Shown here one piece after another: positions 1,955 to 56,334 of a DNA stretch of 57,798 bases. Position 1 is the first letter of the stretch, and the number at the start of each line of letters is the position of its first letter. The notes below the pieces were generated by a model, which ran no database searches, was not told where the DNA came from, and saw nothing but the letters and a program-made list of their open reading frames with translations. This DNA is from Patescibacteria group bacterium (GTDB taxonomy: Bacteria; Patescibacteriota; Microgenomatia; UBA8517): positions 111,975 to 169,772 of the forward strand of contig JBGSJG010000004.1 in NCBI GenBank assembly GCA_041742135.1, written 5' to 3'. Made by a program: the position numbers and the translations under genes.

Positions 1955-3457
1955 ATGCGTTATAGCTCAAAAGTCGTTGAGCGGTTAGTAAACCAGTATA
2001 AAGAAATCTCACTTCTTGGTAAAGTCAGTGCACTTTTAGGATGGGATTTGAATGTTAATCTTCCCTCGCGTGCTTCTGAAACTCGTGCGAGCCAGGAAGC
2101 ATTTATTACTAAATTAATTTCCCAGAGATGGAAGAGTGAAGCGTTTAAGGCTGATTTAGCTTCAGCAAACAAGCTTAAAAACTTAAACCCGCACGAATTG
2201 GCAATAATTAGAAACTTAAATCATTCGGCTAAGTTTTATCACAAAGTTCCAGAAGAGTTGATTGTCGAGTTTTCTGAAGCTTCATCGAGGGCTTTTGTGG
2301 CTTGGAGAAGCGCTCGGGAAAAGTCAGATTTTAGTATTTTTGCTCCGCATTTGTCTAAGCTCGTCGAAATTAATAAGCTTATAGCTGGCCACATTGGATA
2401 CAAGAAAAATCCATATGACGCGCTTTTGGATATGTATGAGCCGGGGTTGACAGCGAAGGAGTGCACACAGATCTTTGCAGGGCTAACAGAGGGAATAGGC
2501 GATTTACTCAAGTCAATCAAAAAATCTAAAACGTATAAAACCCAGAAGAGTTCGGAGGATCAAGAATTCCCAGTTGAGAGCCAGAAACAAATTGCCAACT
2601 TTGTTTTAAATAAAATTGGCTACGATTTTAATTCCGGGAGGATGGATGTTTCGGCTCATCCTTTTACGACTGAGCTCGGCGCACACGATATTCGGATTAC
2701 CAATCGATACAGTCCGCACAATTTTATTGAATCCATAATGGTCGCAATGCACGAAGGCGGCCACGCGCTTTATGAGCAGGGTGTGGACGAGGAATTTGTA
2801 AACACACCGCTTGAAGGAGGAGTGTCGCTTGGAATCCATGAATCTCAGTCTAGATTTTGGGAAAACCAAGTTGGCAGAAGTGAAGAGTTTGTTGATTATA
2901 TTGCTGCAACTCTTAAAGCATTTTACCCGGCACAGCTGGCCCATGACGACGCAAGATCGATGTATCTAAAATTTAATGCAGTCCGGCCGAGTTTGATCCG
3001 TGTGGAAGCGGACGAAGTTACTTATAACCTGCACATTGCCTTGCGATTCGAACTTGAAGAGGCATTAATTAATGGAAAAATCAAGGTTGACGATTTGCCG
3101 AAAATTTGGAACGCCAAAATGAAAAAATTCTTGGGAGTCGTTCCAAGTAGTGATGCCGAAGGGGTTTTGCAAGATGTGCATTGGTCGTACGGAAGCTTTG
3201 GTTATTTTCCAACTTATACGTTGGGCAACTTGTATGCTGCACAGTTTACGCATTTTATGAAGAAAGAAATTGATGCCCCCAGCGCGATAAAATCAGGAAA
3301 CCTTGGCATAATTTTGTCGTGGCTTCGGGAAAATATTCACAAGCATGGTAGTTACTATTGGCCGAATGAGTTATGTAAAAGAGTCACCAAAAAAGGGCTA
3401 GACCCAAAATACTTCTTGGACTATTTGAGCCAAAAATACGCGGCTTTGTACGTTTAA
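1955..3457 (+). CDS. Carboxypeptidase Taq (M32) metallopeptidase
   Basis: 500 aa with HEGGHALYEQG (HExxH), HESQSRFWEN and DVHWS motifs typical of family M32. Confidence 0.9.
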   Translation: MRYSSKVVERLVNQYKEISLLGKVSALLGWDLNVNLPSRASETRASQEAFITKLISQRWKSEAFKADLASANKLKNLNPHELAIIRNLNHSAKFYHKVPEELIVEFSEASSRAFVAWRSAREKSDFSIFAPHLSKLVEINKLIAGHIGYKKNPYDALLDMYEPGLTAKECTQIFAGLTEGIGDLLKSIKKSKTYKTQKSSEDQEFPVESQKQIANFVLNKIGYDFNSGRMDVSAHPFTTELGAHDIRITNRYSPHNFIESIMVAMHEGGHALYEQGVDEEFVNTPLEGGVSLGIHESQSRFWENQVGRSEEFVDYIAATLKAFYPAQLAHDDARSMYLKFNAVRPSLIRVEADEVTYNLHIALRFELEEALINGKIKVDDLPKIWNAKMKKFLGVVPSSDAEGVLQDVHWSYGSFGYFPTYTLGNLYAAQFTHFMKKEIDAPSAIKSGNLGIILSWLRENIHKHGSYYWPNELCKRVTKKGLDPKYFLDYLSQKYAALYV

Positions 3458-3498
3458 TTATTGACTAGGCGTGATTTGGTTTGTATAGTGAGTAACGT

Positions 3499-3819
3499 AT
3501 GGCAACAGTGAACATTAATGATGCGGATTTTGCTTCGAAGGTTCTTGGCGCTGATAAACCAGTCTTGGTTGATTTTTGGGCTCCTTGGTGTGGGCCTTGC
3601 CGAATGGCAGAGCCAGTTATGGAGGAATTATCTGAAGAATACAAAGACAAGATTGACATAGTGAAGCTTAACGTCGACGAAAATCAGGATAACCCAATCA
3701 AATATGGAGTAATGTCTATTCCTACCACTATTTTATTTAAGGGCGGACAGGAGATTGGCAGACAGGTTGGCTTTGCAGGGAAAAAAGGTTTTGAAGATTT
3801 GATTAAAAAAGGAATTTAA
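3499..3819 (+). CDS. trxA: Thioredoxin
   Basis: 106 aa with the WAPWCGPC active site. Confidence 0.95.
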   Translation: MATVNINDADFASKVLGADKPVLVDFWAPWCGPCRMAEPVMEELSEEYKDKIDIVKLNVDENQDNPIKYGVMSIPTTILFKGGQEIGRQVGFAGKKGFEDLIKKGI

Positions 3820-22393: not shown

Positions 22394-22441
22394 AATTGGT
22401 CCCGGGATTGTATAAACTTCGGTTTATACTTCAAATCCACT

Positions 22442-23922
22442 TTTTTGAGGGTTTGATCCTGGCCCAGGGTAAACGCTGGCGGCGTGCTTTAGGCATGCAA
22501 GTAGAACGAGAAATCCCGCTTCGGCGGGATGGAAAGTTGCGAACGGCTGAGTAACACGTAGGCATCTACCTCTAAGTGAGGGATAGTCCACCGAAAGGTG
22601 GGGTAATACCGCATAACACCGAAAGGTCAAAGCGCTTAACTGCGCGCTAAGAGAGGAGCCTGCGCACCATCAGCTTGTTGGTGAGGTAATGGCTTACCAA
22701 GGCTATGACGGTTAGGGGACATGAGAGTGTGTACCCCCAGAGTGGGACTGAGACACGGCCCACACACCTACGGGTGGCAGCAACCGGGAATCGTGCGCAA
22801 TGGACGAAAGTCTGACGCCGCGACGCCGCGTGAAGGATGAAGGCCTTAGGGTTGTAAACTTCTTTTGCCACGTAAGAAACGACGTGGAGAATAAGCACCG
22901 GCTAACTTCGTGCCAGCAGCAGCGGTAATACGAAGGGTGTAAGCGTTGCCCGGATTTATTGGGCGTAAAGTGTTTCGTAGGCGTTTCGGCAAGTTGTTCT
23001 TTAAAGCCCTCGGCTCAACCGAGGAAAGGGGAATGATACTACCGGAATTGAAGAATGTTGGAGTTACTGGAACTATCGGTGTAGGGGTGAAATCCGTTGA
23101 TATCGATAGGAACTCCGAAGGCGAAGGCGAGTAACTAAGCATTTCTTGACGCTGAGGAACGAAAGCTAGGGGAGCGAAAGGGATTAGAGACCCCTGTAGT
23201 CCTAGCCGTAAACTTTGTCCGCTAGCTTGTCCCGATTTATCGGGGCGGGCGTAAGCTAACGCGTGAAGCGGACCGCCTGGGGAGTACGGTCGCAAGACTA
23301 AAACTCAAAGGAATTGACGGGGACCTGCACAACCAGTGGATTATGTGGTTTAATTCGAGACGAACCGAAGAACCTTACCCAGACTTGACATGCTACCGTT
23401 TAGGCACCTGGAAACAGGAGCCGATCTTAATTTATTAGGAAGGTAGCACAGGTGTTGCATGGCCGTCGTCAGCTCGTGCCGTGGGGTGTTCCCTTAAGTG
23501 GGGTAACGAGCGCAACCCCTGTCCTGATTTAAATATTATCAGGAGACTTTTCGATTTTCGTATCGGGAGGAAGCGGGGACGACGTCAGGTCAGCATGGCC
23601 CTTATGTCTGGGGCTACACACATAATACAATGGCATCGACAATGGGTTGCCAAGCCGTAAGGCGGAGCTAATCCCATAAAACGATGTCTCAGTGGGGATT
23701 GAGGGCTGCAATTCGCCCTCATGAACGCGGAATTGGTAGTAATCGGGAGTCAGCTAAATCCCGGTGAATACGTTCTCAGGTCTTGTACACACCGCCCATC
23801 AAGTTAGTAAAGTTGGGGGCACCCGAATGGCCGCTGAGCGGTCAGAAGGTGAAACCAGCGATAAGAATTAAGTTGTAACAAGGTATCCGTTCTGGAAGGA
23901 GCGGATGGATCACCTCCTTTCT
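22442..23922 (+). rRNA. rrs: 16S ribosomal RNA (~1.48 kb, no insertion seen)
   Basis: 5' GAGGGTTTGATCCTGGCCCAG..., an internal GTGCCAGCAGCAGCGGTAATAC, and 3' GGATCACCTCCTTTCT. Ends are approximate. Confidence 0.95.
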
Positions 23923-25309: not shown

Positions 25310-26080
25310 ATGACAGCTGAGGCAATTAATTTTACACCTACACCAGCTCCACCTCCTGAGGCACCAAGGCAAGATGTCAGATACGTCACTACACCTACGC
25401 TTGAAAGCCAGCTTGCTGTGCTTGGAATGACTCTTGGCCCCGAGCCAACTCCAACACCAGCCCCAGTTGAAACACCAGATGAACCAGATCCATACAGGGA
25501 AACGGACCAAGCGAATGTTCGCGCTATTGAGTCTCCAACAAATAATGAAGAATTTGGACTTCAAAACCCATTAATAATAGCTGTTGCAAAGCTTGATATC
25601 AGGTTAGCTCCTGATCTCACTTTTGTAGTTTTGGGAGGGTCAGACGGACCATTTGGTTTGGCATATAATGCAAGTTGCATCGTCGATCAGCTTGAAGATG
25701 AAGACGTTTTAGGCGACAGGCTAACACAAGACTTGCCACAACGCGATGGGTTATTTAGTTCCGGGCCCGGTTCTGTGAGGTCAGTTCAAGTTTGGCCAGT
25801 GGGAGTAAGAGTGGAGAGTGTGGAGGCAACAGTTTTAGCAAACGAAGTTCCATTGACGATAAATGGTCAAGATTTCAGGCTTCCGATATTGACAGCCCGT
25901 GGAGTTACTTTTAACGGGCAGTACACTGACTGTCCTACAGTAGGCGAGCGCTTTAGTGGGCAAATTGGTCAAGTTCTCAGTGGAGTCGATGCGGCCGCAA
26001 TCGGGGAGACTCTCGGTTCGGTTTTGGGGGATGCGTTCTCAGGTTTTCAAGAGGGTTTTGGTGAAGGCCGCAGTAATTAA
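25310..26080 (+). CDS. Hypothetical protein
   Basis: 256-aa ORF with a PT-rich N-terminus and no recognisable domain. Confidence 0.5.
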   Translation: MTAEAINFTPTPAPPPEAPRQDVRYVTTPTLESQLAVLGMTLGPEPTPTPAPVETPDEPDPYRETDQANVRAIESPTNNEEFGLQNPLIIAVAKLDIRLAPDLTFVVLGGSDGPFGLAYNASCIVDQLEDEDVLGDRLTQDLPQRDGLFSSGPGSVRSVQVWPVGVRVESVEATVLANEVPLTINGQDFRLPILTARGVTFNGQYTDCPTVGERFSGQIGQVLSGVDAAAIGETLGSVLGDAFSGFQEGFGEGRSN

Positions 26081-27219
26081 TCCTTAACCTTCTTGCTCCA
26101 TCTTTGTCTTGAAACTTCAAGCACAGTGTTTTTATTTTGGTTAGCATTTGCAGGAAGTGGTAACGTGTGAGCTAAAAATGGCCTTGTTGAGTGGCCGTCA
26201 ATCATAAGCTTCACCGCAATCTGGAAGTTCTCAAGATTTACCAAATCATTTTGCGAGAAAACCTCGGCATATTCTTTGTGAATAATCTGTGCGTCATCCG
26301 CGCCCACTCCAAAGCTGATTAAAGACCCGGCGTTTCCCAGAATTGCTTTTTGCACAGGATCGGGAATTTGGGCCATGTATTGGTTGGCAAGCATCAGGTT
26401 AAGCCTGTATTTTCGGGCCTCAGACAAAATTTTAATAAAGCTGTTGGTGGCAAAATTTTGAAACTCGTCCACAAAAAGGTGAAAATCGAGTCTTTGCTCC
26501 TCGGGCATATCCACTCTATGCATCGCAGCCAGCTGGAACTTGGTAATAAGCGTGGCCCCAAGTAGCGCCGCGTTGTCTTCCCCAAGTCTACCTTGTGACA
26601 AGTTGGCTAAAAATATCATCTTTTTATCCATCACTTCGGAAAGTGAGATTGTGCTTTTGGGCTGGCTGATAATTGATCTGATCATGGGCGAAGTTACAAA
26701 CTGGCCGACTTTGTTCTGAATTGGCGAGATGGCTTCAGCTTGCAGGGACTCAGGCATTTGGTTAAACTCTCGAAGCCAAAACTGCTTTAAGGTTTCGTCG
26801 TGCATTTTTTCAACTACCTTTTTGCGGTAGCCTTCGTCGCCCAAGATGCTTAAGACATCGGCAAGAGTTGAGCCTTCTATCTCAGTCAAAGTTAGGAGTG
26901 AATTTCGAAGGATATACTCCATACGCGCGCTCCAGACATTGGCCCATACTTTGGTAAATATCGACATGAGGCCACTGACTACAAGCTCGGCTTCCTCTTT
27001 GGTGGTGACTTCCAAGGGGTTAATAATAACCGGGTAGTCTCGGTCCGCGGGGTTAAAATAAATCGTGTCATTAATGCGATTTTTGGGAATGTAATTAAGC
27101 ACTGTCTCGCAAAGGTCACCATGAGGATCAATTACGGCAACTCCTCGGCCTTTTTTAAGATCATCAATAACCATGTTGGCGATAAGGGTTGATTTTCCAG
27201 TTCCAGTTTTTCCTACCAC
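26077..27219 (-). CDS. P-loop ATPase, type IV secretion coupling-protein/HerA-like (C-terminal half of a split gene)
   Basis: Walker A VVGKTGTGKST at the extreme N-terminus, IDPHGDL, Walker B LFVDEFQNF, and ARKYRLNLMLANQY. Confidence 0.75.
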   Translation of the reverse strand: MVGKTGTGKSTLIANMVIDDLKKGRGVAVIDPHGDLCETVLNYIPKNRINDTIYFNPADRDYPVIINPLEVTTKEEAELVVSGLMSIFTKVWANVWSARMEYILRNSLLTLTEIEGSTLADVLSILGDEGYRKKVVEKMHDETLKQFWLREFNQMPESLQAEAISPIQNKVGQFVTSPMIRSIISQPKSTISLSEVMDKKMIFLANLSQGRLGEDNAALLGATLITKFQLAAMHRVDMPEEQRLDFHLFVDEFQNFATNSFIKILSEARKYRLNLMLANQYMAQIPDPVQKAILGNAGSLISFGVGADDAQIIHKEYAEVFSQNDLVNLENFQIAVKLMIDGHSTRPFLAHTLPLPANANQNKNTVLEVSRQRWSKKVKD

Positions 27220-27267: not shown

Positions 27268-28209
27268 TTAATTTTTGTGCTGTGCTCGGCCAAAAAAGTT
27301 AACTCGCTCGCGTTCATCCTCGTCCATTCCTAAAGACACTGGTAAGTTTTCTGGAGTTTCGGACAAAACTGCATTGCCCCAAGAAATGGATGGAACTTTT
27401 ATTTTCTCCCCGGGCAAATGCCAAAGCGTGGCAATTTCGTGAATATTTAAAATATCGTTTGTGTCTACACGCCGCAAAACTAAACTTTCAAAGGAGTGGT
27501 CTCGGGCCAAAAACTTTTTGCCACGGGTAGAAAGTGCGTTGCCATCTGTTTTATTAAATACACCAAAGGCGCTGGTCAAGTCTGATAAGAGCGCGCCGTT
27601 GGTTGAAGCGATTCGGATGGAAACTCCAAAGCCGGGGAAGCTAATTTTTTCTTTAATAATTCCGGCATCGGGAAGAGGGGATACATTGCCTTCGCGGTCC
27701 TTTATGCCTCGCTCAAGCATTTTTTGGGTGTTGGTTTGCCAACTGCCAGAAATTGCGGTGAGAGCAAATTGAACAACTGCAAATTCTTCGGCCGTGGACT
27801 TGGACATAACAGAAAGAATTGAAGAAAGCGGGTCACTGTCAACAAAAGTTGAATAAGTTGCCAGTGGATAATAATTGCCGCGGGCAAGTTTTAAAGCTCG
27901 AACGGGAATGGGGTTTGTGATGGGGTCTGCCACCTTCTGGCTTAAGACAAGCGGATAGTTGGATTGTAGTTGTGCTTCAACAAAAGGAGCCAGATCGCTA
28001 CTTGTGGTTACAGCAAAGTGAATTTGCTGATTTATTAAATATATTTCAAGGGCTAAAGGGTCTGGCCGTTGGCCAGACATTCTGTCCCAAAAAGAAATCG
28101 TGTTTATTTGCGTTAATGCTGAAAGAAAAGTTTGAGCCGCCTCAGGAGTGTACTCATTGCCACGAGGAACTTTGATTAGTAGAGTAGTAAGCTCGGCCAT
28201 TGGCTTCAT
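27268..28209 (-). CDS. N-terminal half of the split T4CP/HerA-like ATPase
   Basis: It ends ...GRAQHKN-TAA in the same frame as, and 16 sense codons upstream of, the GTG of 26077-27219. Confidence 0.6.
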   Translation of the reverse strand: MKPMAELTTLLIKVPRGNEYTPEAAQTFLSALTQINTISFWDRMSGQRPDPLALEIYLINQQIHFAVTTSSDLAPFVEAQLQSNYPLVLSQKVADPITNPIPVRALKLARGNYYPLATYSTFVDSDPLSSILSVMSKSTAEEFAVVQFALTAISGSWQTNTQKMLERGIKDREGNVSPLPDAGIIKEKISFPGFGVSIRIASTNGALLSDLTSAFGVFNKTDGNALSTRGKKFLARDHSFESLVLRRVDTNDILNIHEIATLWHLPGEKIKVPSISWGNAVLSETPENLPVSLGMDEDERERVNFFGRAQHKN

Positions 28210-29368: not shown

Positions 29369-29388
29369 GGGTGCGTGGCTCAGTGGTA
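29369..29388 (+). pseudogene. Orphan copy of the first 20 nt of tRNA-Ile
   Basis: gggtgcgtggctcagtggta is identical to 29427-29446. It is followed by unrelated sequence containing the hairpin cacttc...gaagtg, with no T arm. Confidence 0.7.
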
Positions 29389-29426: not shown

Positions 29427-29501
29427 GGGTGCGTGGCTCAGTGGTAGAGCGCTTTCCTGATAAGAAAGAGGTCCCTGGTTCGATCCCAGGCGCACCCACC
29501 A
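29427..29501 (+). tRNA. tRNA-Ile (anticodon GAU), CCA encoded
   Basis: Acceptor GGGTGCG/CGCACCC, anticodon stem CTTTC/GAAAG with loop CTGATAA, T arm CCTGG-TTCGATC-CCAGG, then ACCA. Confidence 0.9.
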
Positions 29502-29773: not shown

Positions 29774-29998
29774 ATGCCACAAACAGTAACTATAGATAAA
29801 AAAACCGCTGAAAGTTTGATTGATGCCATATTATCTTTGAAAAAAGAAATTGCGCTTTTACGCCAGAGCCGGGAAGCTCAATATGGCTCTATGGAATGGT
29901 GGCACAAAAGCACTAAGCAGGGTTTAAAAGATATTGAAAATGGGGATTATGAAGCCTTTGGCAACGTAGAAGACCTTATTAAAAGCTTGCATGAATGA
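29774..29998 (+). CDS. Type II antitoxin (partner of the RelE/ParE-like toxin)
   Basis: 74 aa, with a 4-nt ATGA overlap onto the toxin gene. Confidence 0.6.
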   Translation: MPQTVTIDKKTAESLIDAILSLKKEIALLRQSREAQYGSMEWWHKSTKQGLKDIENGDYEAFGNVEDLIKSLHE

Positions 29999-30255
29999 AA
30001 CCTGTCTATTCCAAAGAATTCAAGAAAAAATATAAAAAGCTTCCAGCATCGGCAAAAAAGCAGGTAGATAAGCAAATCAGATTTATTTTTATAGATTTTA
30101 GGCACCCCTCTTTGAAGTCCAGAAAGATGAGTGGATATAAAGACGTGTATGAAGCCAGAGTCAGTAAAGGTTATAGATTAAGGTATCGAGTACAAAAGGA
30201 AATTGTATCGCTTCTCACAGTTGGCCCTCACGATGAAGGATTGGGAAAAAAGTAA
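29995..30255 (+). CDS. RelE/ParE-superfamily toxin
   Basis: 86 aa. The pattern K..KKL......I...I..HP......K.SGYKDVYEARVSKGYRLRY......I.LL.VGPHD matches RelE/ParE. Confidence 0.7.
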   Translation: MKPVYSKEFKKKYKKLPASAKKQVDKQIRFIFIDFRHPSLKSRKMSGYKDVYEARVSKGYRLRYRVQKEIVSLLTVGPHDEGLGKK

Positions 30256-30265
30256 ACCACAAAAA

Positions 30266-30291
30266 CCCCCCCGTTTTACCGGGGGGGTTTT
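30266..30291 (+). terminator. Intrinsic terminator after the TA module
   Basis: C7 (30266-72) pairs with G7 (30281-87) and is followed by TTTT. Confidence 0.75.
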
Positions 30292-30380
30292 CTTATCTAA
30301 TAGTACTTCTGTCGTGTAATTCTTATATCGAGTATCTCTTGGCTCGAGTATTAAATAGATATTATTTAAGAATCAAATTT

Positions 30381-30443
30381 AGTGTTTCGTTCCTCGCCAA
30401 TTACGGCGAAGAGACTCATCAGTCCCGCTAAGCGGGAGACACT
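30381..30443 (-). ncRNA. Hammerhead ribozyme, type III topology
   Basis: The minus strand reads AGUGUC|UCCCGC-UUA-GCGGGA-CUGAUGA-GUCUCUUCGCC-GUAAUU-GGCGAGGAAC-GAA-ACACU. The full conserved core, a GUC cleavage triplet and three helices are all in the correct register. Confidence 0.8.
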
Positions 30444-31040
30444 GAAGGCACTGCACGCGAGAAACTGAATTGGAAAGGGGGGGATAAAATAGAATCGTCA
30501 TTGGACGAAACTAAACCTTTTTCCAACCGCTCGCTGCAGTTAGTAGGCTTGAAAACGCATTGTTTTCCGGCCTTACTGCATTGTGCAGTGGGAGACTAAG
30601 TAAATAGTCTCAGGTCTAGCCAGTAAACTCATAGAGAGTTCACTTTCTAAGTATCTCCTCATTCCAATCAGTTCTCGCATGCAGGGGTTGGTCGCCAGTG
30701 GCGACCCACCTCATTCCCCAAGGGGAATGACCTACCAAGCCTCACGCTGCCCGGTCCTCATCTTCCCAGCTTCTGGAAAGAGAGAAACGAGTTTTGCGAA
30801 ACTCGGCAGACTTGCAAGCGAAAAACCGCTTTTTGTTAACCAACCATTGTGATTAGACCTTTTTGGAAATCCTTGAGGGATTTGGTCTAAATGGTTAACA
30901 AAGTGTTAAAGCTAGCCTATTGTCCGTTGTCTTGGAACACCCCTTTATGGATGGGTTGGCTAGTGAAAGTCAAACAATCACCTCATGGTCCCGACGGGAC
31001 GACCTTTCCGCAGAGCGGCAAGGCATGAGGTGCAAAACAG
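30444..31040. ncRNA. Large, densely structured non-coding region of unknown class
   Basis: ~600 nt without an ORF, carrying at least 12 perfect or near-perfect hairpins plus a ~33-bp long-range helix (30451-30486 with 30652-30684). Polarity is unresolved. Confidence 0.4.
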
Positions 31041-31042
31041 AG

Positions 31043-32956
31043 TTACTGGTTCAAGCCAGTCAGCAAGCTGACGAAAGCTTGAAGCTCGGCGACAGCCCAA
31101 TCAGGCCGCTGTAACTCAGGACGTACCAGAGTATGAGCCGAAAAACTTGGCTCTTCCTGCGGCTGACCTGAAGTCGCCAGTAATTGCAATTGCGTCTCGC
31201 GCGTCCGCGTTGGTGTGCCGAGGAAATAATTGGTTGCGAATATTTCGCCACCAGCCTCGAACACTACAGTCCGATCACAGTACCATGTGGGGTTTTCGAC
31301 GTCGCTGTCGATGTTGACCAGATAGGTAAACCTACCTTGGTCAAAGACCCACAAGTTACCATCTGTAACGTACGCAACAGCGCCGTTACGCGATATTGCT
31401 GGTTGGCTTGCGCCTCCCAGGGTAGCGGGCCAGTCTGGCGATTCAACGACTAAAATCGTGTCGTTGGTAGCCGTTTGAACCGTATAAGCGGTTATGTCGT
31501 TCTGAACCTGAGGCTCAGTAGACATGCCGCCTTCGGCTGGCTGGATGTCGCGGACTGCGCCGGTTTCAAGGTTTATCACCTTGATTCGACCGTCTTGGAC
31601 ATAGCCGATTTCTAGGTTGTTCACCCAGAATGGCTGAATTGCATTGGCGATAGTTCTCGTTAAAGAACCACCGTCGTGTGTGGCTTTGACGCCCCAAACT
31701 CCCTCTGTTGAGAGGAACTCGTAGGCGACATCGCCCTGATCGTTCACCGCCGGATTGCGGTAGAGCCCTGCTGTTGGTGTGACGACCCAGCTATTCGCCA
31801 GATCCTCAAACCTTGCCATTCGGATCTCCCAAAGGAGTCCGACCTGCCGCGCGAACGCGACGTATTCACCCGAAGGTGAAAGTGATGGATCGATGTCGAC
31901 GTTGTCCGTAGTCGCCCACGAGCTGACCGCGCGATTGCCGCTAGTCAAGATTCGTAGTTGAACTTCGTTGTCGACCCGACGCAGGTAAACAGATGGCTCC
32001 GTACAATAGACCGGAGCGGGGGGCGGAGGTTCAGGCATAGCCTCGAACCAACAATCGTACACCGGCATGCCGCCCTGCACAGTCCATGTTGCATACATGG
32101 TTGAGCCAGCAATTTCTCGCTGAATCGTTTGACCTTGATCAAACCATGTACCGTGGCGGAAAGGACCGACGTAGCCTTGGCGGACGCCCATATATGTCCA
32201 AACCCGGAGGGTGTGGCCATCTACGACGTATTCGCCGTCAGCGAACTGAGCGTGTTCGAGACCGCGCGCCGGACATGTAACTGTCGGCAAAGTCTCGGTT
32301 GGCCCCTGCGGTTGCTGTGTCGGCGGAATGACCGTCGGCGTTTCGGTCGGCGGTTGCACCGTCGGGGTACTACTGGGCTCGACCGTGGGTGTAAACGTCT
32401 CCGTTGGAGGAGTCGTTTCCGTTGGTGTTGCACTGGGCTCGACCGTACTGGTCGGGCTTGGCGTGTTCGTGCTGGTTGGCACAAACGTGTTCGTTGCCGT
32501 TGGCGGAATCTCCACCAAATTCATGGAAATCGTACCAACAATCGACGCGACTTCGTCGGGGCCTAGGACCACAAATATCGTGATCGTATTGCCCAAAGTC
32601 AGTCGACCTTGTATTGGAGTTTCCTTGCCGGAATACTCCTCAACATTTAGCGCCCAGATCTCTCCTCCATCGCTTCTTCCCACTACGTGGGTGTTTTCGT
32701 GTTCCGAACCAGGATCGTTAATGACCAATCCTGAGATGTCGAACTCACGACCGACAAGGTCACTAGGAACTTGGTAGTTCCCAATGACGTGTTCTGATCC
32801 TTCTTGGCCACGCGGCCAAGGAGGACCACCACCGATCGAGAACGAAATTTCCGTCCCCGTTGCTCCTACCGGCGCCAAATGCAGCCCGGTGCCACAGAAT
32901 AGGACTGCGCCTATTACTGCGGCGAGCAGTACGAACAAAATGTACCGATTGCGCAT
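31043..32956 (-). CDS. Secreted protein: signal peptide, PT-rich linker, TolB/PD40-like beta-propeller
   Basis: GGAGG 5 nt before ATG 32956 (MRNRYILFVLLAAVIGAVLF). PTxTPTxxP linker. PSLSPSGEYVAF and PAISRNGAVAY are PD40-like repeats. GC-rich. Confidence 0.7.
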   Translation of the reverse strand: MRNRYILFVLLAAVIGAVLFCGTGLHLAPVGATGTEISFSIGGGPPWPRGQEGSEHVIGNYQVPSDLVGREFDISGLVINDPGSEHENTHVVGRSDGGEIWALNVEEYSGKETPIQGRLTLGNTITIFVVLGPDEVASIVGTISMNLVEIPPTATNTFVPTSTNTPSPTSTVEPSATPTETTPPTETFTPTVEPSSTPTVQPPTETPTVIPPTQQPQGPTETLPTVTCPARGLEHAQFADGEYVVDGHTLRVWTYMGVRQGYVGPFRHGTWFDQGQTIQREIAGSTMYATWTVQGGMPVYDCWFEAMPEPPPPAPVYCTEPSVYLRRVDNEVQLRILTSGNRAVSSWATTDNVDIDPSLSPSGEYVAFARQVGLLWEIRMARFEDLANSWVVTPTAGLYRNPAVNDQGDVAYEFLSTEGVWGVKATHDGGSLTRTIANAIQPFWVNNLEIGYVQDGRIKVINLETGAVRDIQPAEGGMSTEPQVQNDITAYTVQTATNDTILVVESPDWPATLGGASQPAISRNGAVAYVTDGNLWVFDQGRFTYLVNIDSDVENPTWYCDRTVVFEAGGEIFATNYFLGTPTRTRETQLQLLATSGQPQEEPSFSAHTLVRPELQRPDWAVAELQAFVSLLTGLNQ

Positions 32957-33621
32957 GATTACCTCCTCACGCGCTAAAAAAAACGAATGCCACACAGGCA
33001 CTCCACTACGCTCTTGCGAGTTTCGAGGAGTACAGCACTACCAACTGTCCCACCGGTGGGATCAAACAGCCGGCAATGCTTTTCTCCGAAGAGATCCTGT
33101 ATGGCAAGGAAAGGACAACTATTAACCTTTGCTTAATTCATAACCCCAAAAATAAAAATTACGGATTATTCAAATTAAGAAGATTTTATTAATTCATCCT
33201 CTCTTTGCCACACAGGAAAGTCCCACTTAATTGGGATTAAAAACATGCCGTGTTTATCCACGGTTTGACTTTCTTTCTTTAAAAATTTCGCTTGCTTGTC
33301 AATGTACGAGTCAAATAGTTTCAAAAATCCCACTCGCTTCGAACGGGTTTTAATTTCTTTGACTTACTGCTCTGGAAACTCATGTTCCAGAAGGGGAGGG
33401 TCGACCAATAGATCCACCGGCCCCTCCTCTGAAACCTGAAAATCGAGTATCTGTCTGAATTCGAGAATTACTTAAATCGTTAATTATATTTGATTCACCC
33501 TCGATCGTTATATAGAAGATTAAAGAAGGATTGATTTGTAACTGGCACTATATACCATAGAGTGATAATTGTCAAGCGCCGCAGGCGTCCTGAGTATGTC
33601 GAAGGATGATAAAATCAAGAT

Positions 33622-34769
33622 ATGCCGCGTCTTGTAGTAATTACTTTTGCTAGAGCTGGCTTGGGCCACTTGCGCGTAGCTAATGCAATTATTGAAAGCG
33701 TTCCAGCAGGCACTGAAACTGTCTTTTTTAGCACGACCGACCGAGCTACCTCATTTTTTCATAGGCTAAGCTCAATTAACCCCGTTATGCGCTACTTGGC
33801 TGAGGCCATGCAGCACGGACTACTTGAAGCTGTTTTCACGCTTTTATACACAGCCTCAATCCGAGCTCGGGCTGGTCGCCTTCTGCCTCAAATTGAGGCG
33901 GTAGTTAATCAGCAAAAAGTGAGGCCAACCGAGCTCGTTTTTATCTCAACTCATTTTGGGCTGGCCCACCAGCTCAGCGAGCTTGGAATGTGGCCGGGGC
34001 GGATCTAACAATAGTGCCTAGCCGGCTTACTAAACTTCGCCTTGGTGCCCCTAACTCCAAAGTTGTCCATTACCCACTTAGTCTTAAACTGGGAAAGTAT
34101 TTGGCAGCGGACAAGTTTTCTTACCGCCAAAAACAACTAGATCCAGCGAGTCGGGCTAAGGTAAAAATAAGCCTGCCGGTTTCGGGAGCCGCAGTAGGGT
34201 TACGGTTTTATGAAGAAATATCCGAGCGGCTAAATAGTTTGGAATCAAGATTTACGTTTTATATAACTTCGCGGGATTCTGACTTTACCAAAATATTTCT
34301 GGCGAAAATGGCAAAACGCCCGTATGCAAAAATTCACGCCTTCGAGCATGACCGGCAGGTGGTAGCAAGCTATGATCGGACGATTCGCACAAACACCATC
34401 GCCCTTGAGATTACCAAGCCTTCTGAACAGGCTTTCAAAGCATTGTATTCTCCTCGGCAAGTTGGTGGCGTGGTTCTACTGTTTACGCGGCCAATCGGAA
34501 GGCAAGAGCAGGATAACTTGTGGTACTTGGGGCGAAATGGTTTGATTCCGTCGAGAGAGGATCAGGCGGCTCTTTGGCGGCATGAGCTCGGAGTTATCGC
34601 AAAAGCTAAAAATTGGCGAGGGCTTCGCCTGCCGAGTGAGCCTAAAAAAGCTGCAAAGTTTATCAACTGGTGTTTGGAGACTGGAGTTTTTTCTAGCATG
34701 CTTAGCTACACTGCAAAAGCAAAAAGTAGTGGAGTGACGAAGCTTTGGGATTATGTAGATAAATTATAA
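33622..34769 (+). pseudogene. MGDG-synthase/GT28-like glycosyltransferase interrupted by a frameshift near 33990
   Basis: N-terminal ARAGLGHLRVANAI (GxGH) in ORF 33622-34008. The protein continues in the -1 frame from 33990 (ADLTIVPSRLTKL...). The combined length of ~385 aa is typical for this family. Confidence 0.45.
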
Positions 34770-36096: not shown

Positions 36097-36170
36097 GGGC
36101 CCATAGCTCAGTTGGCTAGAGCGCGTCATTTGCAATGACGAGGTCAAGGGTTCGAGCCCCTTTGGGTCCA
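36097..36170 (+). tRNA. tRNA-Ala (anticodon UGC)
   Basis: Acceptor GGGCCCA/TGGGTCC with the G3:U70 identity pair, anticodon stem CGTCA/TGACG with loop TTTGCAA, T loop TTCGAGC. Confidence 0.9.
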
Positions 36171-36233
36171 CATTTAATTGAAAGATTAGAGTTTGTAAAA
36201 ACAAGTTTTACAGATTTTAATTTTTTAATTAAA

Positions 36234-36323: not shown

Positions 36324-39656
<3,333 letters not shown>

Positions 39657-49596: not shown

Positions 49597-52500
49597 TTAT
49601 ATTCTTTTCATCGGCAGTAAAAGCCAACGCTGCCCGTCCCAATATTCTAGGCTTGTGGTTTCGATGTTGAAGCCAATTACGCCGAGCTTTGGTTTTTTGG
49701 GTCTGCCCGCTGTGTTCCAAGAAGGAATCGTTTGGCGAGTCACAGTCGACAATGCGTTGTAGCTTGGAGTTAAGGACTTAACAATTTGTGGATTTCTATA
49801 AAAAATCACTTTTTTAGTAGGAATCAGTGGCACAGGCAGTACAGGAAGCGCTATCGCTTCTGACGGTGAGGCTGACTTACTTGAACTTGGTGAAGCTGAT
49901 TCGCTTGTGGTTACAGGCGAAGGCGACGCGCTGGCCGTTGGGCTTGGGCTTGCGGACGGAGAAACTGATGGTGATTCACTGCCTGCAGAAGGTGATGCAG
50001 ACGGCGAAACCGAGCCTGATGGGCTTATCGACGCCGACGGGGAGAGCGATGGTGAGCCGGACGCACTTTCGCTTGCCGATGGACTAAGCGATAGGCTTGG
50101 GCTAACGGACTGCGATTCCGACGCACTTGGTGATTGGCTCGCTGATGGGCTAGTGGAAGCCGACGGAGAAACTGATTCGCTGACACTGGCCGTTGGGCTA
50201 ACGGATGCAGAAGGGGACACTGATGCAGAAGGTGAAATCGACAACGATCCTGAAGCACTGGGCGAAATACTGGCAGAGATCGAGGCGCTTGCGCTAGTGC
50301 TTGCCGATGGCGAGATTGATAAAGATGGTGATAGGGACTGACTTTCGCTTGCAGAAGGGCTGATCGACGCGCTAGTGGAAGCACTCGCGCTAACTGATGC
50401 TGACGGCGAAATTGACACACTAGTGGACGAAGACGGACTTGTAGAAGCTGATGGAGATAGTGAGGCAGATATAGACGCGGAAGCCGAAGTGCTTGAGGAT
50501 GGTGAGATTGATGCAGAGATACTGCTAGATGGACTTCTTGAGGCAGATGGTGATACTGATTGACTCCCGGATGCCGAAGGTGAGACTGATGAGCTTGGTG
50601 AGACGGACGCGCTGGTGCTGGCACTTGGGCTTATGGATGAAGATGGAGAAACTGATGCAGAAGTTGATGTGGATGGTGAGACCGATAGTGAAACACTGGC
50701 TGATGGACTAGTTGATGCTGATGGACTTAAGGATGCAGATGTTGATGCCGATGGTGATACTGATGCACTGGTGCTTGCGGATGGGCTTATGGAAGCAGAC
50801 GCACTCGAAGAGGGCGATGCAGAGGCGCTTGGCGAAACTGATGCTGATACGGAAGAAGAGGGACTTGTGCTACTAGACGGCGAGATTGAGGCAGAGGTAG
50901 ATGCGCTAGGACTAATAGATGTTGAGACAGATGCTGATGGACTTATAGACGCACTGACCGAAGCAGAGGGACTAGTGCTCGCGCTTGGCGAGACAGAAGC
51001 GGAGATGCTTGTGGATGGGCTAGTACTTGCGGATGGTGACACAGATGCACTGGTTGACGAAGACGGAGACACGGATGCTGATATTGACGCAGATGGTGAT
51101 AGTGAAGCGGACACCGATGATGACGGGCTAATTGACGCACTTGGGCTTATTGACGCAGATATGCTGGCACTTGGAGAAATCGAGGCGGAGACGGATGAAC
51201 TTGGCGATACAGAGGCCGAAATCGAAGAAGATGGCGAAATAGAAGCTGATGGTGAAATTGAGGCAGAGGTGCTCGCGCTCGGACTGACGGATGCAGAAGG
51301 GGAAACAGATGTTGATACAGAAGAGGAGGGGGAAATTGACGCAGACAAAGATGCTGACGGAGAAATAGATGCAGACAGGGATGCTGAGGGAGACGTGCTG
51401 GCGCTTGGTGATACTGATGCACTGGTGCTCGAAGAAGGACTGACGCTACTAGACGGCGAGATTGAGGCAGAGGTAGATGCGCTAGGACTAATAGAAGCTG
51501 AGGCAGAAGCAGACGGACTTACGGATGCGCTTGTACTTGTGGACGGGCTGATACTTGCGGATGGTGAAATGCTCGCACTAGAAGATGTACTTGGTGAGAC
51601 CGAGGCGCTTGGGCTTATAGATGCTGAAATAGAAGCACTAGGCGAAACAGATGCTGATATTGACGCAGACGGTGAAATAGAAGCAGATGTTGATGCACTG
51701 GGTGATGTACTTGCGCTTGGTGAAACAGATGCACTGATACTCGAAGAAGGACTTGTAGATGATGATGGGCTAATTGACGCGCTTGCCGAAGCAGATGGAG
51801 ATCTGGAAGAAGAAGGTGAAATGGACGCGGAAACGGAGGAAGAAGGGCTGACACTTGCAGACGGAGATATGGAAGCTGAAGTAGATGCACTTGGAGAGAT
51901 TGACGCACTTGGACTTATCGATGCAGAGATACTGGAACTTGGAGAAACCGATGCGGAGACGGATGAACTTGGCGAGATAGAAGCCGAAATAGAAGAAGAC
52001 GGTGAAATAGAAGCTGAAGGGCTAATGGAAGCCGATATCGACGAGCTGGGTGATATCGATGAGCTGGGTGAAACAGATGCGCTAATGGACGAAGAGGGTG
52101 ATACCGATGCTGATACAGACGCAGACGGAGAAACTGACGCACTAATACTAGAAGATGGACTTGTACTCGCAGACGGCGAGATTGAAGCTGATGTTGACGG
52201 TGACGGCGATACTGAGGACGAAGGTGAAATGGACGCAGACACCGACGAGCTAGGTGAGGTACTGGCAGATGGTGAGATAGAAGCCGATATTGATGAACTT
52301 GGTGATATAGATGCACTGACAGACGATGATGGAGACACAGAGGCCGAGGTGCTTGCGCTCGGCGACACCGAGGAGCTGGGCGAAATGGATGCAGAGATAC
52401 TGGAACTTGGAGAAACAGACGCGCTTGGACTAATGGAGGCTGACACAGATGAAGAAGGCGAAACAGAGGCCGACATTGAAGAGCTTGGTGAAATTGAGGC

Positions 52501-55500
52501 GGATGCAGAAGATGACGGTGAAACAGATGCCGATGGGCTTATGGAAGCCGATATTGACGAGCTAGGGCTTATTGACGCAGACGGACTTATGGATGCAGAG
52601 CTAGACGAGGATGGGGAAATTGACGCAGACGGACTGATGGAAGCCGAGATCGAGGCTGAAGGTGAAGTGGAGGCTGATGGTGATATGGATGTGGACACGG
52701 ATGATGAAGGCGAAGTGCTGGCAGATGGAGAAGTAGATGCACTGATACTGGAAGAAGGACTGATGCTGGCAGAAGGCGAGATGGATGCACTTACTGATGC
52801 AGACGGTGATACAGATGCTGATAGCGAGCTTGACGGGCTAATGGAAGCCGAAACTGAGGAGCTCGGTGAAATGCTTGATGAGGGCGACACCGACGCGCTG
52901 ATTGATGAGGAAGGAGAAATCGAAGCGGATATAGAACTGGACGGACTCACAGATGCGGATACAGATGCAGATGGACTAACAGAGGCCGATGGAGATATGG
53001 ATGCTGACACAGAACTAGACGGTGAAGTGCTTGCACTTGGGGACACGGATGCTGAATGCGACGCAGAAGGAGAAATGGATGCGGATATAGATGAAGATGG
53101 ACTTATTGACGCAGATATTGACGACGATGGGCTGATAGATGCACTAGGTGATATTGACGCAGACACCGACGAGCTGGGAGAAACCGATGCCGATGGACTA
53201 GTAGATGCGGAAGCGGATGAACTCGGTGAAATACTGGCAGATGGAGAAACTGACGCACTGGCTGATGCACTGGGTGAAATCGAGGCAGATGGTGAGATCG
53301 AAGCCGATATTGATGAACTTGGGGAGACAGATGCACTTACAGACGACGATGGGGACACGGATGCCGACGCAGAAGCTGAAGGACTGATACTAGAAGAGGG
53401 TGAAATTGAAGCGGAGATGCTTGCGCTAGGCGAGACAGACGCGCTCGGGCTTATGGATGCCGATATTGATGAGCTGGGCGACACGGAAGATGAAGGCGAG
53501 ATTGACGCAGACAATGACGAGCTGGGTGAAGTACTGGCGGAGGGTGAGACCGAGGCTGAAATACTTGCTGAAGGGCTGATGCTGGCTGACGGCGAGACCG
53601 ACGCACTAATTGATGAGGAAGGAGAAATGGATGCGGATATAGAACTGGACGGACTTATAGAGGCGGATAAAGATGACGATGGGCTGATAGATGCGCTGGG
53701 TGAAATTGATGCGGATACAGAGCTGGATGGTGAAGTACTGGCGCTTGGGGATACCGAAGCTGAATGTGAAGCAGAAGGTGACACTGATGCGGATACAGAT
53801 GAAGATGGGCTTATTGATGCAGATATTGACGACGATGGGCTAGTGGATGCACTGGGCGAGATTGATGCAGATACGGAAGCTGATGGGGATACTGATGAAG
53901 ATGGCGACACCGAGGCAGAAGCGCTAGCAGAAGGGCTGGTTGACGCAGACGGACTAATAGAAGCTGAGATCGAGGCTGAAGGTGAAGTAGATGCTGATGG
54001 AGAAACAGATGCAGAAACTGACGAAGACGGTGACGTACTGGCGGATGGTGACACAGATGCCGATATTGATGAACTTGGGGAGACAGATGCGCTAACTGAT
54101 GCACTTGGAGACACAGAAGCAGAAATACTCGCACTTGGCGAGATTGAGGAGGAGGGTGAAATTGATGCTGAAACTGACGAACTCGGAGAAACCGATGCTG
54201 ATGGGCTTATAGAAGATGAAATACTGGAACTTGGTGACGTGGATGCACTAGGAGATATAGAGGCAGAAATTGATGAAGATGGTGACGTACTGGCAGAAGG
54301 CGATATTGATGAAGAAGCACTCGCTGAAGGGCTGATACTGGAGGATGGTGATACAGATGCGCTATTGGACGCAGAAGGTGAAACAGAGGCTGATATTGAA
54401 GAGCTTGGTGAAATTGATGCCGATATTGACGAGCTAGGGCTTATTGAGGATGACGGTGACACAGATGCAGACACAGATGATGATGGTGATGTACTAGAAC
54501 TTGGCGAGACTGAGGCTGATATTGAGGAGGACGGTGAAATTGAGGCCGACGGGCTAATAGATGCAGATGCTGAAGAGCTAGGTGAAATGCTGGCTGAAGG
54601 GCTTATTGATGCACTGATGGATGCGGAAGGAGAAACGGAAGCCGACGCTGATGCCGACGGAGATATGGATGCTGAAACACTGGCCGAAGGTGATATGGAT
54701 GCAGACGGGCTGACAGAGGCTGACACTGATGTGCTTGGGCTTATGGAAGCACTCGGACTAATGGATGCTGATGCCGAGGCTGAAGGTGAAACAGAGGCTG
54801 ATGGACTTATCGAAGCGCTCGGACTGATTGACGCCGATATTGATGAACTAGGTGAAACAGATGAACTTGGAGATACAGATGCAGAGACAGATGAAGAAGG
54901 CGAGATACTAGCGCTTGGACTTATGGATGCAGAGCTAGAGGCTGATGGTGATACTGACGCCGACGGGCTAATGGAAGCCGAAACTGAGGAGCTCGGTGAA
55001 ATGCTTGATGAGGGCGACACCGAAGCGCTGATTGACGCAGAAGGACTGATGCTGGAAGAAGGCGACACTGAAGCGGAAGTACTTGCACTCGGTGAAATTG
55101 ACGAGCTTGGTGAAACCGATGCTGAGATACTCGACGAAGGACTTACTGATGCAGACGGCGAAATTGATGCAGACACGGACGCAGACGGAGAAACGGAAGC
55201 TGATGGTGAAATTGATGCAGAAACCGACGAACTTGGCGAAATACTGGCTGATGGTGATACGGATGCTGAGATGGATGCGGACGGACTAAGTGAGGCGGAC
55301 GGTGATACACTGGCGCTTACAGAAGCAGATGGTGAAATTGAAGCACTTGGTGAAATAGAAGCGCTAACTGATGTTGACGGACTGACCGAAGCTGATGGAG
55401 AAATTGATGCACTGACAGAGGCCGAAGGACTGACAGAAGGGCTTCCTGCCGGAGCGGCTTTGACAATAAAAGAAAGCATGCCTCCTTTTTCGAAAGTTGT

Positions 55501-56334
55501 GTTGTTATAAACATCTGATATGGTTACAGATGTCGATGTAGATGAGGCTCTGGACATCACAAACATCGCTGATCCGCCGGAAAGCCCGTCATCATAGACT
55601 TCAGTCCAGCCGGAATCATATGTGGGATTAGCCGGGGCATCATATGCGGCGTATGGCACAGCCGAGAGGGTAATATCATCTGCTGTGGGGGTTGCAGCTA
55701 GTGTCTGGGATTGCCCCCCGTCACCAATATCTGTCGAGTCGGTTGTTGCAAAACCAGCTATGGGAGTAGTTGTGTCGTAGCCAGTGAAAGCAACTACATA
55801 GACAACCCAATTAAACATCGCCCCCATTGCGGGAGCTACAGTTATTGCCATTGATGAAGGAGAGCCGCCCACCTCAGCAGTAAAAACATTTCCTCGTACG
55901 GCCCACGATGATTCTTCTCTTGCCTGGCCCTCGAACGTATAGCTTAGCCCACCCCCTGAAATAGAGGGCTGCCCAAGGTCGCCTAAAGTCATCCACATGT
56001 TGGTCACAAAAACCACCAAGAGTGAGTTGGCAGGAGGAGTGAAAGAACCTGTTGAATAGTCTCCTGTTCCGTAACTAGAAGCAGAAACCCAAGAACCTAT
56101 ATCTGTACGGTCTAGGCCTGCCGCTGGTGACGGAGAGACGGATGAGCTGGGGGAGACCGATGCCGAAGCTGAAGCCGAAGGGCTTATCGACGCCGACAAC
56201 GATGCAGACGGAGAGATGGATGCACTTTCTGAAGCAGATGGTGAAACTGAAGCGGAATCAGAAGAACCACCACCAGAAAGCGCTATGTCAAACGCATTAG
56301 CGCCGTTATCGCGAAGTGTTATGTCAAATGCCAT
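49597..56334 (-). CDS. Giant (2,245 aa) serine-rich repeat surface/fibre-like protein
   Basis: Uninterrupted ORF. It has a ~230-aa unique domain, ~1,860 aa of SAS[VI]-SPS[AS]S[VIT]-SPS[AS]S[VIT] units, and an 86-aa unique C-terminus. Flanking genes are on the same strand. Confidence 0.8.
49858..55443 (-). repeat. Coding tandem repeat, 48-nt (16-aa) period, ~5.6 kb
   Basis: The period is seen in the translation. Units are strongly diversified at synonymous sites, with all six Ser codons used. A short extra block lies at 56125-56259. Confidence 0.85.

Follow-up and report, generated by a model that had tools for sequence, protein, structure and literature searches.

Thousands of hammerhead ribozymes have been identified in bacteria and phages. 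So far, their role there is unsettled, and the function of the bacterial ones is still described as undefined (PMC6765202). Clustered hammerheads of bacteria and phages flank genes and cleave both in vitro and in vivo, and they have been proposed to take part in processing long transcripts (Perreault et al., 2011, PMC3088659). In this study, we analyzed a stretch of 57,798 nucleotides (nt) from a Patescibacteria group bacterium (contig JBGSJG010000004.1, positions 111,975 to 169,772), hereafter the window, and a hammerhead predicted at positions 30378-30446 of its minus strand. Judged from its sequence and from those of its relatives, this element is a genuine type III hammerhead, which is evolutionarily conserved and kept by selection. 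It probably serves to form the 3' end of the transcript of an upstream gene, the open reading frame (ORF) ORF652.

The element shares with the gene-flanking hammerheads of bacteria and phages (Perreault et al., 2011, PMC3088659; PMC6765202) the core, the three-way junction, an intergenic or 3'-of-gene position on the coding strand, and variable neighbors. Its metagenomic relatives also cluster as in the earlier report, with two to five copies on one strand (PMC3088659). Unlike those hammerheads, the ribozyme of the window is a single copy in a chromosome of the candidate phyla radiation (CPR). It lies between the 16S and 23S ribosomal RNA (rRNA) genes, after a folded region of about 600 nt and before a terminator, without a downstream gene. 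In the open-access full-text literature, we found no paper naming hammerheads together with CPR or Patescibacteria.

The Rfam family RF00008 (Hammerhead_3) is seeded mainly from viroid, satellite and plant sequences. The window element matches all the conserved positions of this family, yet it is encoded in the DNA of a bacterial chromosome, with no circular RNA replicon and no partner ribozyme of either polarity. A type III ribozyme beside a structured non-coding segment of a few hundred nt is likewise found in retrozymes and viroid-like circular RNAs, which carry hammerheads in direct repeats. However, a retrozyme-like or long terminal repeat element was rejected for this locus, since the window holds one ribozyme only and no flanking direct repeats, which leaves no way to excise a unit-length RNA. 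Finally, RiboJ is an engineered insulator made of a hammerhead and a hairpin, where the downstream hairpin shapes the 5' end of the next mRNA. The arrangement described here resembles RiboJ in joining a self-cleaving hammerhead to a stable hairpin, which would yield a defined, structured RNA end independent of the neighbors. Unlike in RiboJ, both the window and the natural family have their hairpin upstream, where it would cap the preceding mRNA at its 3' end.

The hammerhead of the window

Read 5' to 3', positions 30446-30378 of the minus strand give UUC AGUGU C / UCCCGC UUA GCGGGA CUGAUGA GUCUCUUCGCC GUAAUU GGCGAGGAAC GAA ACACU AAA, where the slash marks the predicted cut (Table 1). All the defining sequence and structure features of a type III hammerhead are present. 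Loops close stems I and II, and stem III is open and bears the 5' and 3' ends. The pair opening stem II is G10.1:C11.1 (G30415:C30389), the cleavage triplet G-U-C occupies 30440-30438, U16.1 (U30439) pairs with A15.1 (A30385), and position 17 is not G. In isolation, the 69-nt RNA folds with -27.5 kcal/mol (z=-3.8), and all three helices appear in the centroid fold. A preliminary description of this DNA had listed a complete type III hammerhead on the minus strand with a cut between 30438 and 30437. The sequence and two covariance models bear this out: every listed element is present and in register, and C17 of the GUC triplet falls at 30438, next to the predicted site.

To place the element among known RNA families, all 4227 Rfam families were scanned with E-value reporting, on 401 nt and on 3.4 kb (30300-33700). 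RF00008 matches 30379-30445(-) end to end (model positions 1-54) with 33.1 bits, that is, E=1.9e-5 on 401 nt and 1.6e-4 on 3.4 kb, and it is the sole Rfam match with E<=1 in 30300-33700. The check with covariance models advised in the preliminary description thus had a divided outcome: the E-value for RF00008 is significant, but the curated gathering score of 48.5 bits is not reached. Because of this, the hammerhead is absent from a scan of the window at gathering thresholds, which reports only rRNAs, transfer RNAs (tRNAs) and a group I intron. A second covariance model, R1, was built from 82 other hammerheads, all metagenomic, with the window sequence left out. On the whole window, R1 gives one hit only, the ribozyme at 30381-30443(-), with 29.6 bits (rough E~3.5e-7), as compared with 55-76 bits for most R1 matches.

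The bare pattern CUGAUGA N6-36 CGAAA is expected about 0.4 times per window by chance. Hence, the weight of the argument lies on the three helices and on the orthologues and other comparative data. A strict type III descriptor, run on 1.43 Mb of fetched bacterial loci, found two hammerheads only, one linked to a homologous gene (locus L001) and one at a syntenic site (locus L003), and none in 79 unrelated loci. The window ribozyme itself is skipped by this descriptor because its stem II is bulged. It is in this light that a chance resemblance to the hammerhead consensus, devoid of function, has to be weighed. The score under the Rfam cut-off and the frequency of the bare core would allow for it. 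Against it stand the E-values of 1.9e-5 and 3.5e-7 from two independent covariance models, the hammerheads at the syntenic site of a relative and behind a homologous gene, and the silence of the descriptor in the unrelated loci. We regard such a coincidence as extremely improbable. Moreover, the canonical orthologue in L003 (also covered by locus L186) has no RF00008 match at E<=0.1 or E<=0.5, and the Rfam cut-off therefore appears ill-suited to bacterial hammerheads. At this cut-off, genome annotation misses both the window ribozyme and its canonical orthologue.

Hammerheads at related loci

The S1 protein of the window has its best match in Candidatus Woesebacteria bacterium RIFCSPLOWO2_01_FULL_44_24b (64% identity), and the matches ranking next reach about 33%, which indicates a CPR bacterium of the Woesebacteria type. 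L003 and L186 are the same region of a Woesebacteria genome; L186 extends further, and the gene order was combined from both. It begins with 16S, two genes, the VirD4-like ORF710 (76% amino acid identity to window 28200-26080), tRNA-Ile, a terminator block, an ORF of 104 amino acids (aa), the hammerhead and a 440-nt spacer. It continues with a secreted 438-aa LysM-type protein, NYN-like genes, a promoter block, a PIN toxin/antitoxin, a 416-aa gene homologous to window 33641-34748, tRNA-Ala, 23S, 5S, S1 and RadA. From 16S, ORF710 and tRNA-Ile through the terminator block, the hammerhead, a folded spacer, a secreted-protein gene and the promoter block to the 416-aa gene, tRNA-Ala, 23S, 5S and S1, this order is shared with the window. 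The hammerhead of this relative (L003 258-206(-), equal to L186 4006-4058) has a canonical 51-nt form and scores 67.7 bits with R1.

Two blocks frame the ribozyme in both genomes. The terminator block (window 30331-30248, L186 4485-4570) shows 72% identity across 82 nt (E=6e-7 with nhmmer). The promoter block (window 33576-33504, L003 3302-3230) is 81% identical over 73 nt, with the -35 element kept and TATAGT versus TATATT as -10. The roughly 3 kb between these blocks are unrelated in the two genomes, apart from the ribozyme: the window has ORF652, and L003 has ORF438 and the NYN-like genes. By this comparison, a frame of promoter, ribozyme and terminator is conserved while the upstream gene is replaced.

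The two ribozymes have every core base in common and differ by five compensatory pair changes, with zero disruptions. Two double changes affect stem I (A-U to C-G, G-C to C-G) and three affect stem III (A-U to G-C, C-G to U-A, C-G to G-C). From the relative to the window, loop 1 changes from UGUAUG to UUA, and stem II from GCUC-AAAA-GAGC to 10 base pairs (bp) with loop GUAAUU. The S1 proteins of these genomes have only 64% identity, and over such a distance a 63-nt element free of selection would not be expected to keep its core intact while its stems are remodeled. This rebuilding, helix by helix around an untouched core, is good evidence, at the level of sequence, of selection for cleavage.

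A further hammerhead was found through ORF652 itself. The full protein has two homologues only among 5.8 billion clusters (318-363 bits). One of them, P0001, is encoded at L001 1511-3265 and is 53% identical to ORF652 over the C-terminal 319 aa. A hammerhead lies 190 nt past its stop codon (3456-3507; Hammerhead_3 28.7 bits, E=0.0066). The 5' end of 23S and tRNA-Ala are on the strand opposite to this gene, and the orientation of the ribozyme relative to them is as in the window. At their 23S 5' ends, L001 and the window have only 69% identity; L001 evidently represents a distant organism with the same arrangement of gene and ribozyme beside the rRNA genes. Searches with the C-terminal domain of ORF652 alone and with a three-sequence alignment gave no matches; they also missed both known homologues and are hence treated as misses. 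For such domain queries, the Pro/Thr-rich linker of the protein or a word-index problem may distort the selection of candidates. Scans with back-translated patterns detected no ORF652 relatives in the genome or metagenome contigs scanned.

A probable role in 3'-end formation

These findings suggest the following course of events. Transcription would start at the conserved promoter (~33575) and proceed through the leader, ORF652 and the folded region. Once transcribed, the ribozyme would fold and cut its own backbone after C30438. The upstream mRNA would then carry a terminal 2',3'-cyclic phosphate, 13 nt beyond a large closed domain of helices. A tail of about 180 nt with a 5'-OH would be released, comprising the ribozyme body, a 47-nt spacer and the terminator hairpin. 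Hence, the ribozyme would cut the ORF652 transcript just after its folded 3' region and ~180 nt before the transcript end, and we consider it probable that its role is 3'-end formation, with the mRNA uncoupled from downstream sequence. A role of this kind has long been proposed for hammerheads of bacteria and phages, which would separate cistrons by cutting long transcripts into individual mRNAs. The preliminary description had proposed that cleavage sets the 3' end of a transcript crossing the structured region, and this appears to be the most likely role of the element. We infer its co-transcription with ORF652, the cleavage itself and an effect on RNA stability; the link to the promoter derives from consensus matches and conservation.

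Several observations weigh against this proposal, in addition to the Rfam score mentioned above. First, at 10 bp, stem II far exceeds the 6-bp stem I, and loop 1 is limited to 3 nt. With such stem proportions and so short a loop 1, the usual loop-loop tertiary contact seems out of reach, and activity at cellular Mg2+ is uncertain. Second, a strong intrinsic terminator lies about 90 nt downstream and no gene follows on the same strand, so that cleavage looks partly redundant. Third, the relative has a 104-aa ORF (L186 4097-4411) between ribozyme and terminator, which is lacking in the window, where only 47 nt are found. Fourth, the locus of the second ORF652 homologue (L002, P0002) has no hammerhead; there, the gene is followed by tRNA-Ile and then by a homologue of the gene at window 27268-28209. 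Lastly, the p-values obtained for the metagenomic family (see below) are optimistic, as its sequences are mutually related.

The contact between loops is what gives natural hammerheads their speed at physiological Mg2+. In the window, loop 1 UUA could pair with UAA of loop 2, and similar 3-nt matches are seen in a few other cases (L118 and L097). However, stem lengths of 6 and 10 bp do not set these loops side by side.

Some of these points would also fit a ribozyme that is competent but idle, left over from an ancestral intercistronic site between the mRNA of a secreted protein and a small downstream gene, since deleted. The 104-aa ORF between hammerhead and terminator block in L186, as opposed to just 47 nt in the window, could be that gene. 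In addition, ribozymes of the family are normally located between two co-directional genes, and in view of the terminator, a 3' end made by the ribozyme seems superfluous in the window. Such a leftover is at odds with a core and three helices that stayed intact while the stems were remodeled, with five compensatory changes and no disruptions. As the deletion could date from any time, the argument from the intact core is not decisive. Altogether, we find an idle leftover unlikely.

The folded region preceding the ribozyme

The preliminary description had also placed a structured region of about 600 nt directly 5' of the motif, and had stated that no ORF explains the motif. Both statements hold. 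The minimum free energy (MFE) of the 600-nt region gives z=-12.4 against shuffled versions on the minus strand, and z=-10.7 on the plus strand. No minus-strand ORF of more than 40 aa covers the motif or the region, the longest being a 64-aa ORF on the plus strand. In a long-range helix of 13 bp, 30684-30672 pair with 30463-30451. Lengthened by additional pairs, this helix closes a multi-branch domain of about 235 nt and reaches 30451, 7 nt short of the ribozyme's stem III. Counts of G-U pairs (18 and 20) were uninformative as to the strand of the structure. The region matches no Rfam family (E<=1, Rfam 15 models), and blastn of 30250-31045 against phage and plasmid collections returned no match.

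Structured sequence precedes the ribozyme at the three CPR loci. The spacer z-scores are -12.4 in the window and -4.3 and -5.4 in L186 and L001, and a long-range helix ends 2-7 nt before each ribozyme. No sequence homology was found among the three spacers, which measure 600, 440 and 190 nt, respectively.

These observations raise the question of whether the 600-nt region is a free-standing large non-coding RNA rather than a 3' untranslated region, with the hammerhead giving its exact 3' end. The exceptional folding signal, the closed domain that stops 7 nt short of the ribozyme, the lack of ORFs and the structured spacers of L186 and L001 would suit such an RNA. On the other hand, the three spacers share no sequence similarity and the region belongs to no Rfam family. 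From the ORF stop to the region, the minus strand offers no promoter-like site, and pattern, Rfam and R1 searches found no ribozyme for 5' processing. Moreover, the plus strand folds nearly as well, and many of the helices consist of perfect palindromes, a feature that is less usual in conserved functional RNAs. We consider a free-standing RNA quite improbable, and the region is better described as the putative folded 3' end of the ORF652 transcript.

A wider family in metagenomes

A metagenome scan with the pattern CTGANGAGCTCNNNNGAGCGAAA yielded at least 120 loci and 128 listed matches, to which the following counts refer. Complete type III hammerheads make up 102 of the 128, and 83 unique hammerheads have an identical 51-nt layout (alignment A5, model R1), with a stem I of 6 bp, a loop close to UGUGUA and stem II GCUC-AAAA-GAGC. 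In an alignment of 82 rows, 98% of the cells are paired, double changes occur in six of the six stem I pairs, and the covariation score is 0.787, versus 0.17 in shuffles and at most 0.107 in slid controls. Stem II is fixed by the search pattern and is therefore uninformative in this alignment. The ribozymes lie between genes: the median distance is 51 nt from the end of the upstream ORF on the same strand, and 88 nt to the start of the next such ORF downstream. Upstream ORFs are mostly small and unannotated, and the downstream ones include housekeeping genes such as PGK, topoisomerase I, S15, PurE and PilB. The pattern was also detected in 59 viral contigs of IMG/VR, where the window's own variant had no matches.

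About a fifth of the listed matches are not type III (L104, L108, L125, L120, L126, L128, L154 and L181). In these, a closed hairpin follows GAAA (e.g., CCAGCGTAAGCTGG) and the upstream sequence ends in UCUAA, which looks like a different hammerhead topology with the same stem II.

The ribozyme of the window and the 51-nt form are alike in their type III topology, identical core, U16.1:A15.1 pair, 5-bp stem III and closed helix just upstream. They differ in loop 1, which is UUA instead of a 6-nt sequence close to UGUGUA, and in stem II, which has 10 bp, a bulge and loop GUAAUU instead of the 4-bp GCUC/GAGC with an A-rich tetraloop. Both elements of the would-be loop-loop contact have changed together. 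The window ribozyme is tied to the 51-nt form by position and descent, and not by features of the loops or stem II. Its shape, a 3-nt loop 1 with a long stem II, recurs in at least four metagenome ribozymes located beside canonical hammerheads of the same strand (Table 1).

The closed helix upstream is a recurrent trait of the family. The 45 nt preceding the ribozyme have a mean folding energy of -13.1 kcal/mol (n=91), as compared with -7.8 for shuffles (Wilcoxon p=4e-12) and -4.9 for the 45 nt downstream. A stable upstream hairpin is present in 72 cases, and in 56 of them its 3' end is 0-2 nt from the ribozyme. In these hammerheads and in those of the CPR loci, cleavage would therefore leave the upstream RNA with a closed helix, some few nucleotides and a cyclic phosphate at its end.

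A second recurrent trait is found on the other side. A GUUCUUU(A/G) motif, often present within the first 25 nt after the ribozyme (L083-L202), has its complement in loop 2 together with the stem II 3' strand (AAAGAGC). Six or more consecutive pairs with this motif occur in 23% of 94 cases, versus 5.6% in shuffles, the statistics again being optimistic for related sequences. A weaker version is present in the window at 30374-30364, with GAUUCUU against GAGGAAC. Pairing with the downstream GUUCUUU could unfold the ribozyme after cleavage.

Many contigs carry two to five same-strand ribozymes, spaced at 300-700 nt and separated by small unrelated genes. Because of these intervening ORFs, the arrays were rejected as tandem repeats. 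By analogy with recombination sites, the hammerhead and its adjoining hairpin might mark the edge of a swappable gene cassette and take part in its exchange. The separation of unrelated genes in metagenome contigs is compatible with this view, and so are the promoter block and the ribozyme and terminator kept between relatives around ~3 kb of unrelated sequence, as well as the inconstancy of the flanked genes (Perreault et al., PMC3088659). However, the locus has no recombinase, integrase or repeat, and neither a second ribozyme nor a matching element is found at the other edge of the payload. Furthermore, no hammerhead-based mechanism of exchange at the DNA or RNA level is known in bacteria, and variable content beside a conserved element is also expected of ordinary gene turnover. 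A function in cassette exchange thus seems very improbable.

Returning to 3'-end formation, a broader proposal can be made, which we regard as tentative and rather doubtful as a whole. The hammerhead and its adjoining upstream helix would be a reusable module that provides a protected mRNA 3' end, made of the helix and a 2',3'-cyclic phosphate, and insulates cistrons. Together with promoter and terminator, it would frame a slot in the split rRNA region of Woesebacteria-like CPR genomes, in which genes of secreted proteins are swapped. The window ribozyme, with its 3-nt loop 1 and long, bulged stem II, would be a second structural answer to the need for a tertiary contact. For some family members, pairing with GUUCUUU would take the ribozyme apart after cleavage, so that the cut could not be reversed.

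Genomic context

Coordinates of the ribozyme, of the features around it and of the metagenome ribozymes of similar shape are collected in Table 1.

Table 1. Features of the hammerhead locus in the window, and metagenome ribozymes of window-like shape.
Feature	Position	Strand	Basis or remark
Type III hammerhead ribozyme	30378-30446	minus	core 30379-30445 (Rfam model), 30381-30443 (R1 model)
Predicted self-cleavage site, 3' of C17 (30438), before U1.1 (30437)	30437-30438	minus	sequence and covariance-model alignments
Stem III 5' strand AGUGU	30443-30439	minus	pairs with ACACU 30385-30381 (5 bp)
Stem I hairpin UCCCGC-UUA-GCGGGA, 6 bp, 3-nt loop	30437-30423	minus	sequence, Rfam alignment, fold
Catalytic core C3-U4-G5-A6-U7-G8-A9 (CUGAUGA)	30422-30416	minus	
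Stem II GUCUCUUCGCC / GGCGAGGAAC, 10 bp and one bulged C, loop GUAAUU	30415-30389	minus	
G12-A13-A14	30388-30386	minus	
Stem III 3' strand ACACU	30385-30381	minus	
Non-coding, strongly folded 3' region of the ORF652 transcript (predicted)	30447-31042	minus	MFE versus shuffles
ORF652/637, secreted or surface protein	32956-31043	minus	637 aa from ATG; 652 aa from alternative GTG at 33001
Leader, ~580 nt	from promoter to ATG at 32956	minus	
Sigma-70-like promoter TTGACA-17-TATAGT	33575-33547	minus	consensus match and conservation in relative
Promoter block CTTCTTTAATCTTCTATATAACGAT	33576-33504	minus	-35 TTGACA in 33576-33560, -10 TATAGT 33552-33547
25-nt block after promoter	33528-33504	minus	identical in Woesebacteria relative
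Conserved terminator block	30248-30331	minus	starts 47 nt after ribozyme; homologous to L186 block
Terminator hairpin AAAACCCCCCCGG-UAAAAC-GGGGGGGUUUUU	30291-30257		strong, works in both directions; also seen in terminator-like Rfam alignments
Window-like ribozyme, UCGGUC-UUA-GACCGA, stem II GCCUUCCG-UUGAUU-CGGCAAGGC	L118 783-841		
Window-like ribozyme	L097 527-601		
Window-like ribozyme	L131 3477-3551		
Window-like ribozyme	L141 11859-11918		

The rRNA genes of the window are 16S (22441-23920), 23S (36327-39655) and 5S, and its tRNA genes include tRNA-Ile (29427-29501) and tRNA-Ala (36097-36171). Chromosomal genes for RadA, Rho, S1, TatC, a sortase and an M32 carboxypeptidase are also present. 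An organelle origin, which the rRNA genes and a group I intron might suggest, is ruled out by the housekeeping genes (RadA, Rho, S1 and TatC) and by the closest genome, a metagenome-assembled genome of Woesebacteria. About 12 kb of genes separate 16S from 23S, and the ribozyme lies within this region, antisense to the rRNA genes; some of the protein genes there are on the opposite strand as well. The group I intron of the 23S gene is located at 38431-38685 (75.4 bits). In the relative, a group I-like match is found inside the 16S gene (L186 9904-10117), where the 16S match spans about 2.3 kb.

ORF652 is composed of a signal or transmembrane segment, a Pro/Thr-rich linker and a conserved C-terminal domain of about 330 aa. 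It matched no family or fold in Pfam, NCBIfam or the PDB sequences. Exact database look-ups of ORF652 (with both starts), of a 364-aa TAT protein and of ParE retrieved no record. A TnpB- or IscB-like nuclease with a guide RNA in the 600-nt region was also considered for ORF652, and was dropped in view of the signal peptide, the Pro/Thr linker and the lack of a nuclease domain. The ORF652 gene and its 3' region make up a GC-rich island. The preliminary description had located the motif inside a left repeat of this island, which could not be substantiated: three repeat searches revealed no flanking direct or inverted repeat.

The leader of ORF652 is a candidate attenuator or other RNA-level control element, as judged from its length and position. 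Three terminator-like hairpins were observed within 32957-33576(-), at 33347-33329, 33263-33248 and 33003-32985, the last one just ahead of the ribosome-binding site.

Beyond the terminator lies a ParE toxin/antitoxin (29774-30255), whose convergent plus-strand genes end at 30255. An exact copy of the first 20 nt of tRNA-Ile(GAT) is found at 29369-29388, 58 nt upstream of the tRNA gene. In the relative, tRNA-Ile (L186 4610-4681) has the opposite orientation and shares its strand with the hammerhead, and in the window the ParE toxin/antitoxin stands between tRNA-Ile and the terminator. The duplication, the strand switch and the ParE pair together have the look of an inversion or insertion scar.

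Two genes that are single ORFs in the relative are split in two in the window: the 710-aa VirD4/TraG-like coupling protein (26077-27219 and 27268-28209) and the 416-aa protein (33622-34008 and 33990-34769). These could be frameshifts, pseudogenes or sequencing errors. Elsewhere in the window, a 2245-aa ORF at 49597-56334(-) overlaps a 1631-aa ORF at 50615-55510(+).

Conclusions

The ribozyme of the window adds to a class that is already known, and both the conserved frame with its swapped payload and the rule of an upstream helix should be seen as useful leads, not as surprises. The locus offers a natural comparison, in which ribozyme, promoter and terminator are kept in two related CPR genomes, the gene ahead of the ribozyme is replaced, and the ribozyme is rebuilt helix by helix with its core untouched. 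This comparison is good evidence of selection for cleavage, in a group of organisms with small genomes and few ribonucleases. Moreover, the association of the ribozyme with an upstream helix, seen in 91 family members and at three CPR loci, leads to a testable idea, namely that bacterial hammerheads may serve to make protected 3' ends of mRNAs.

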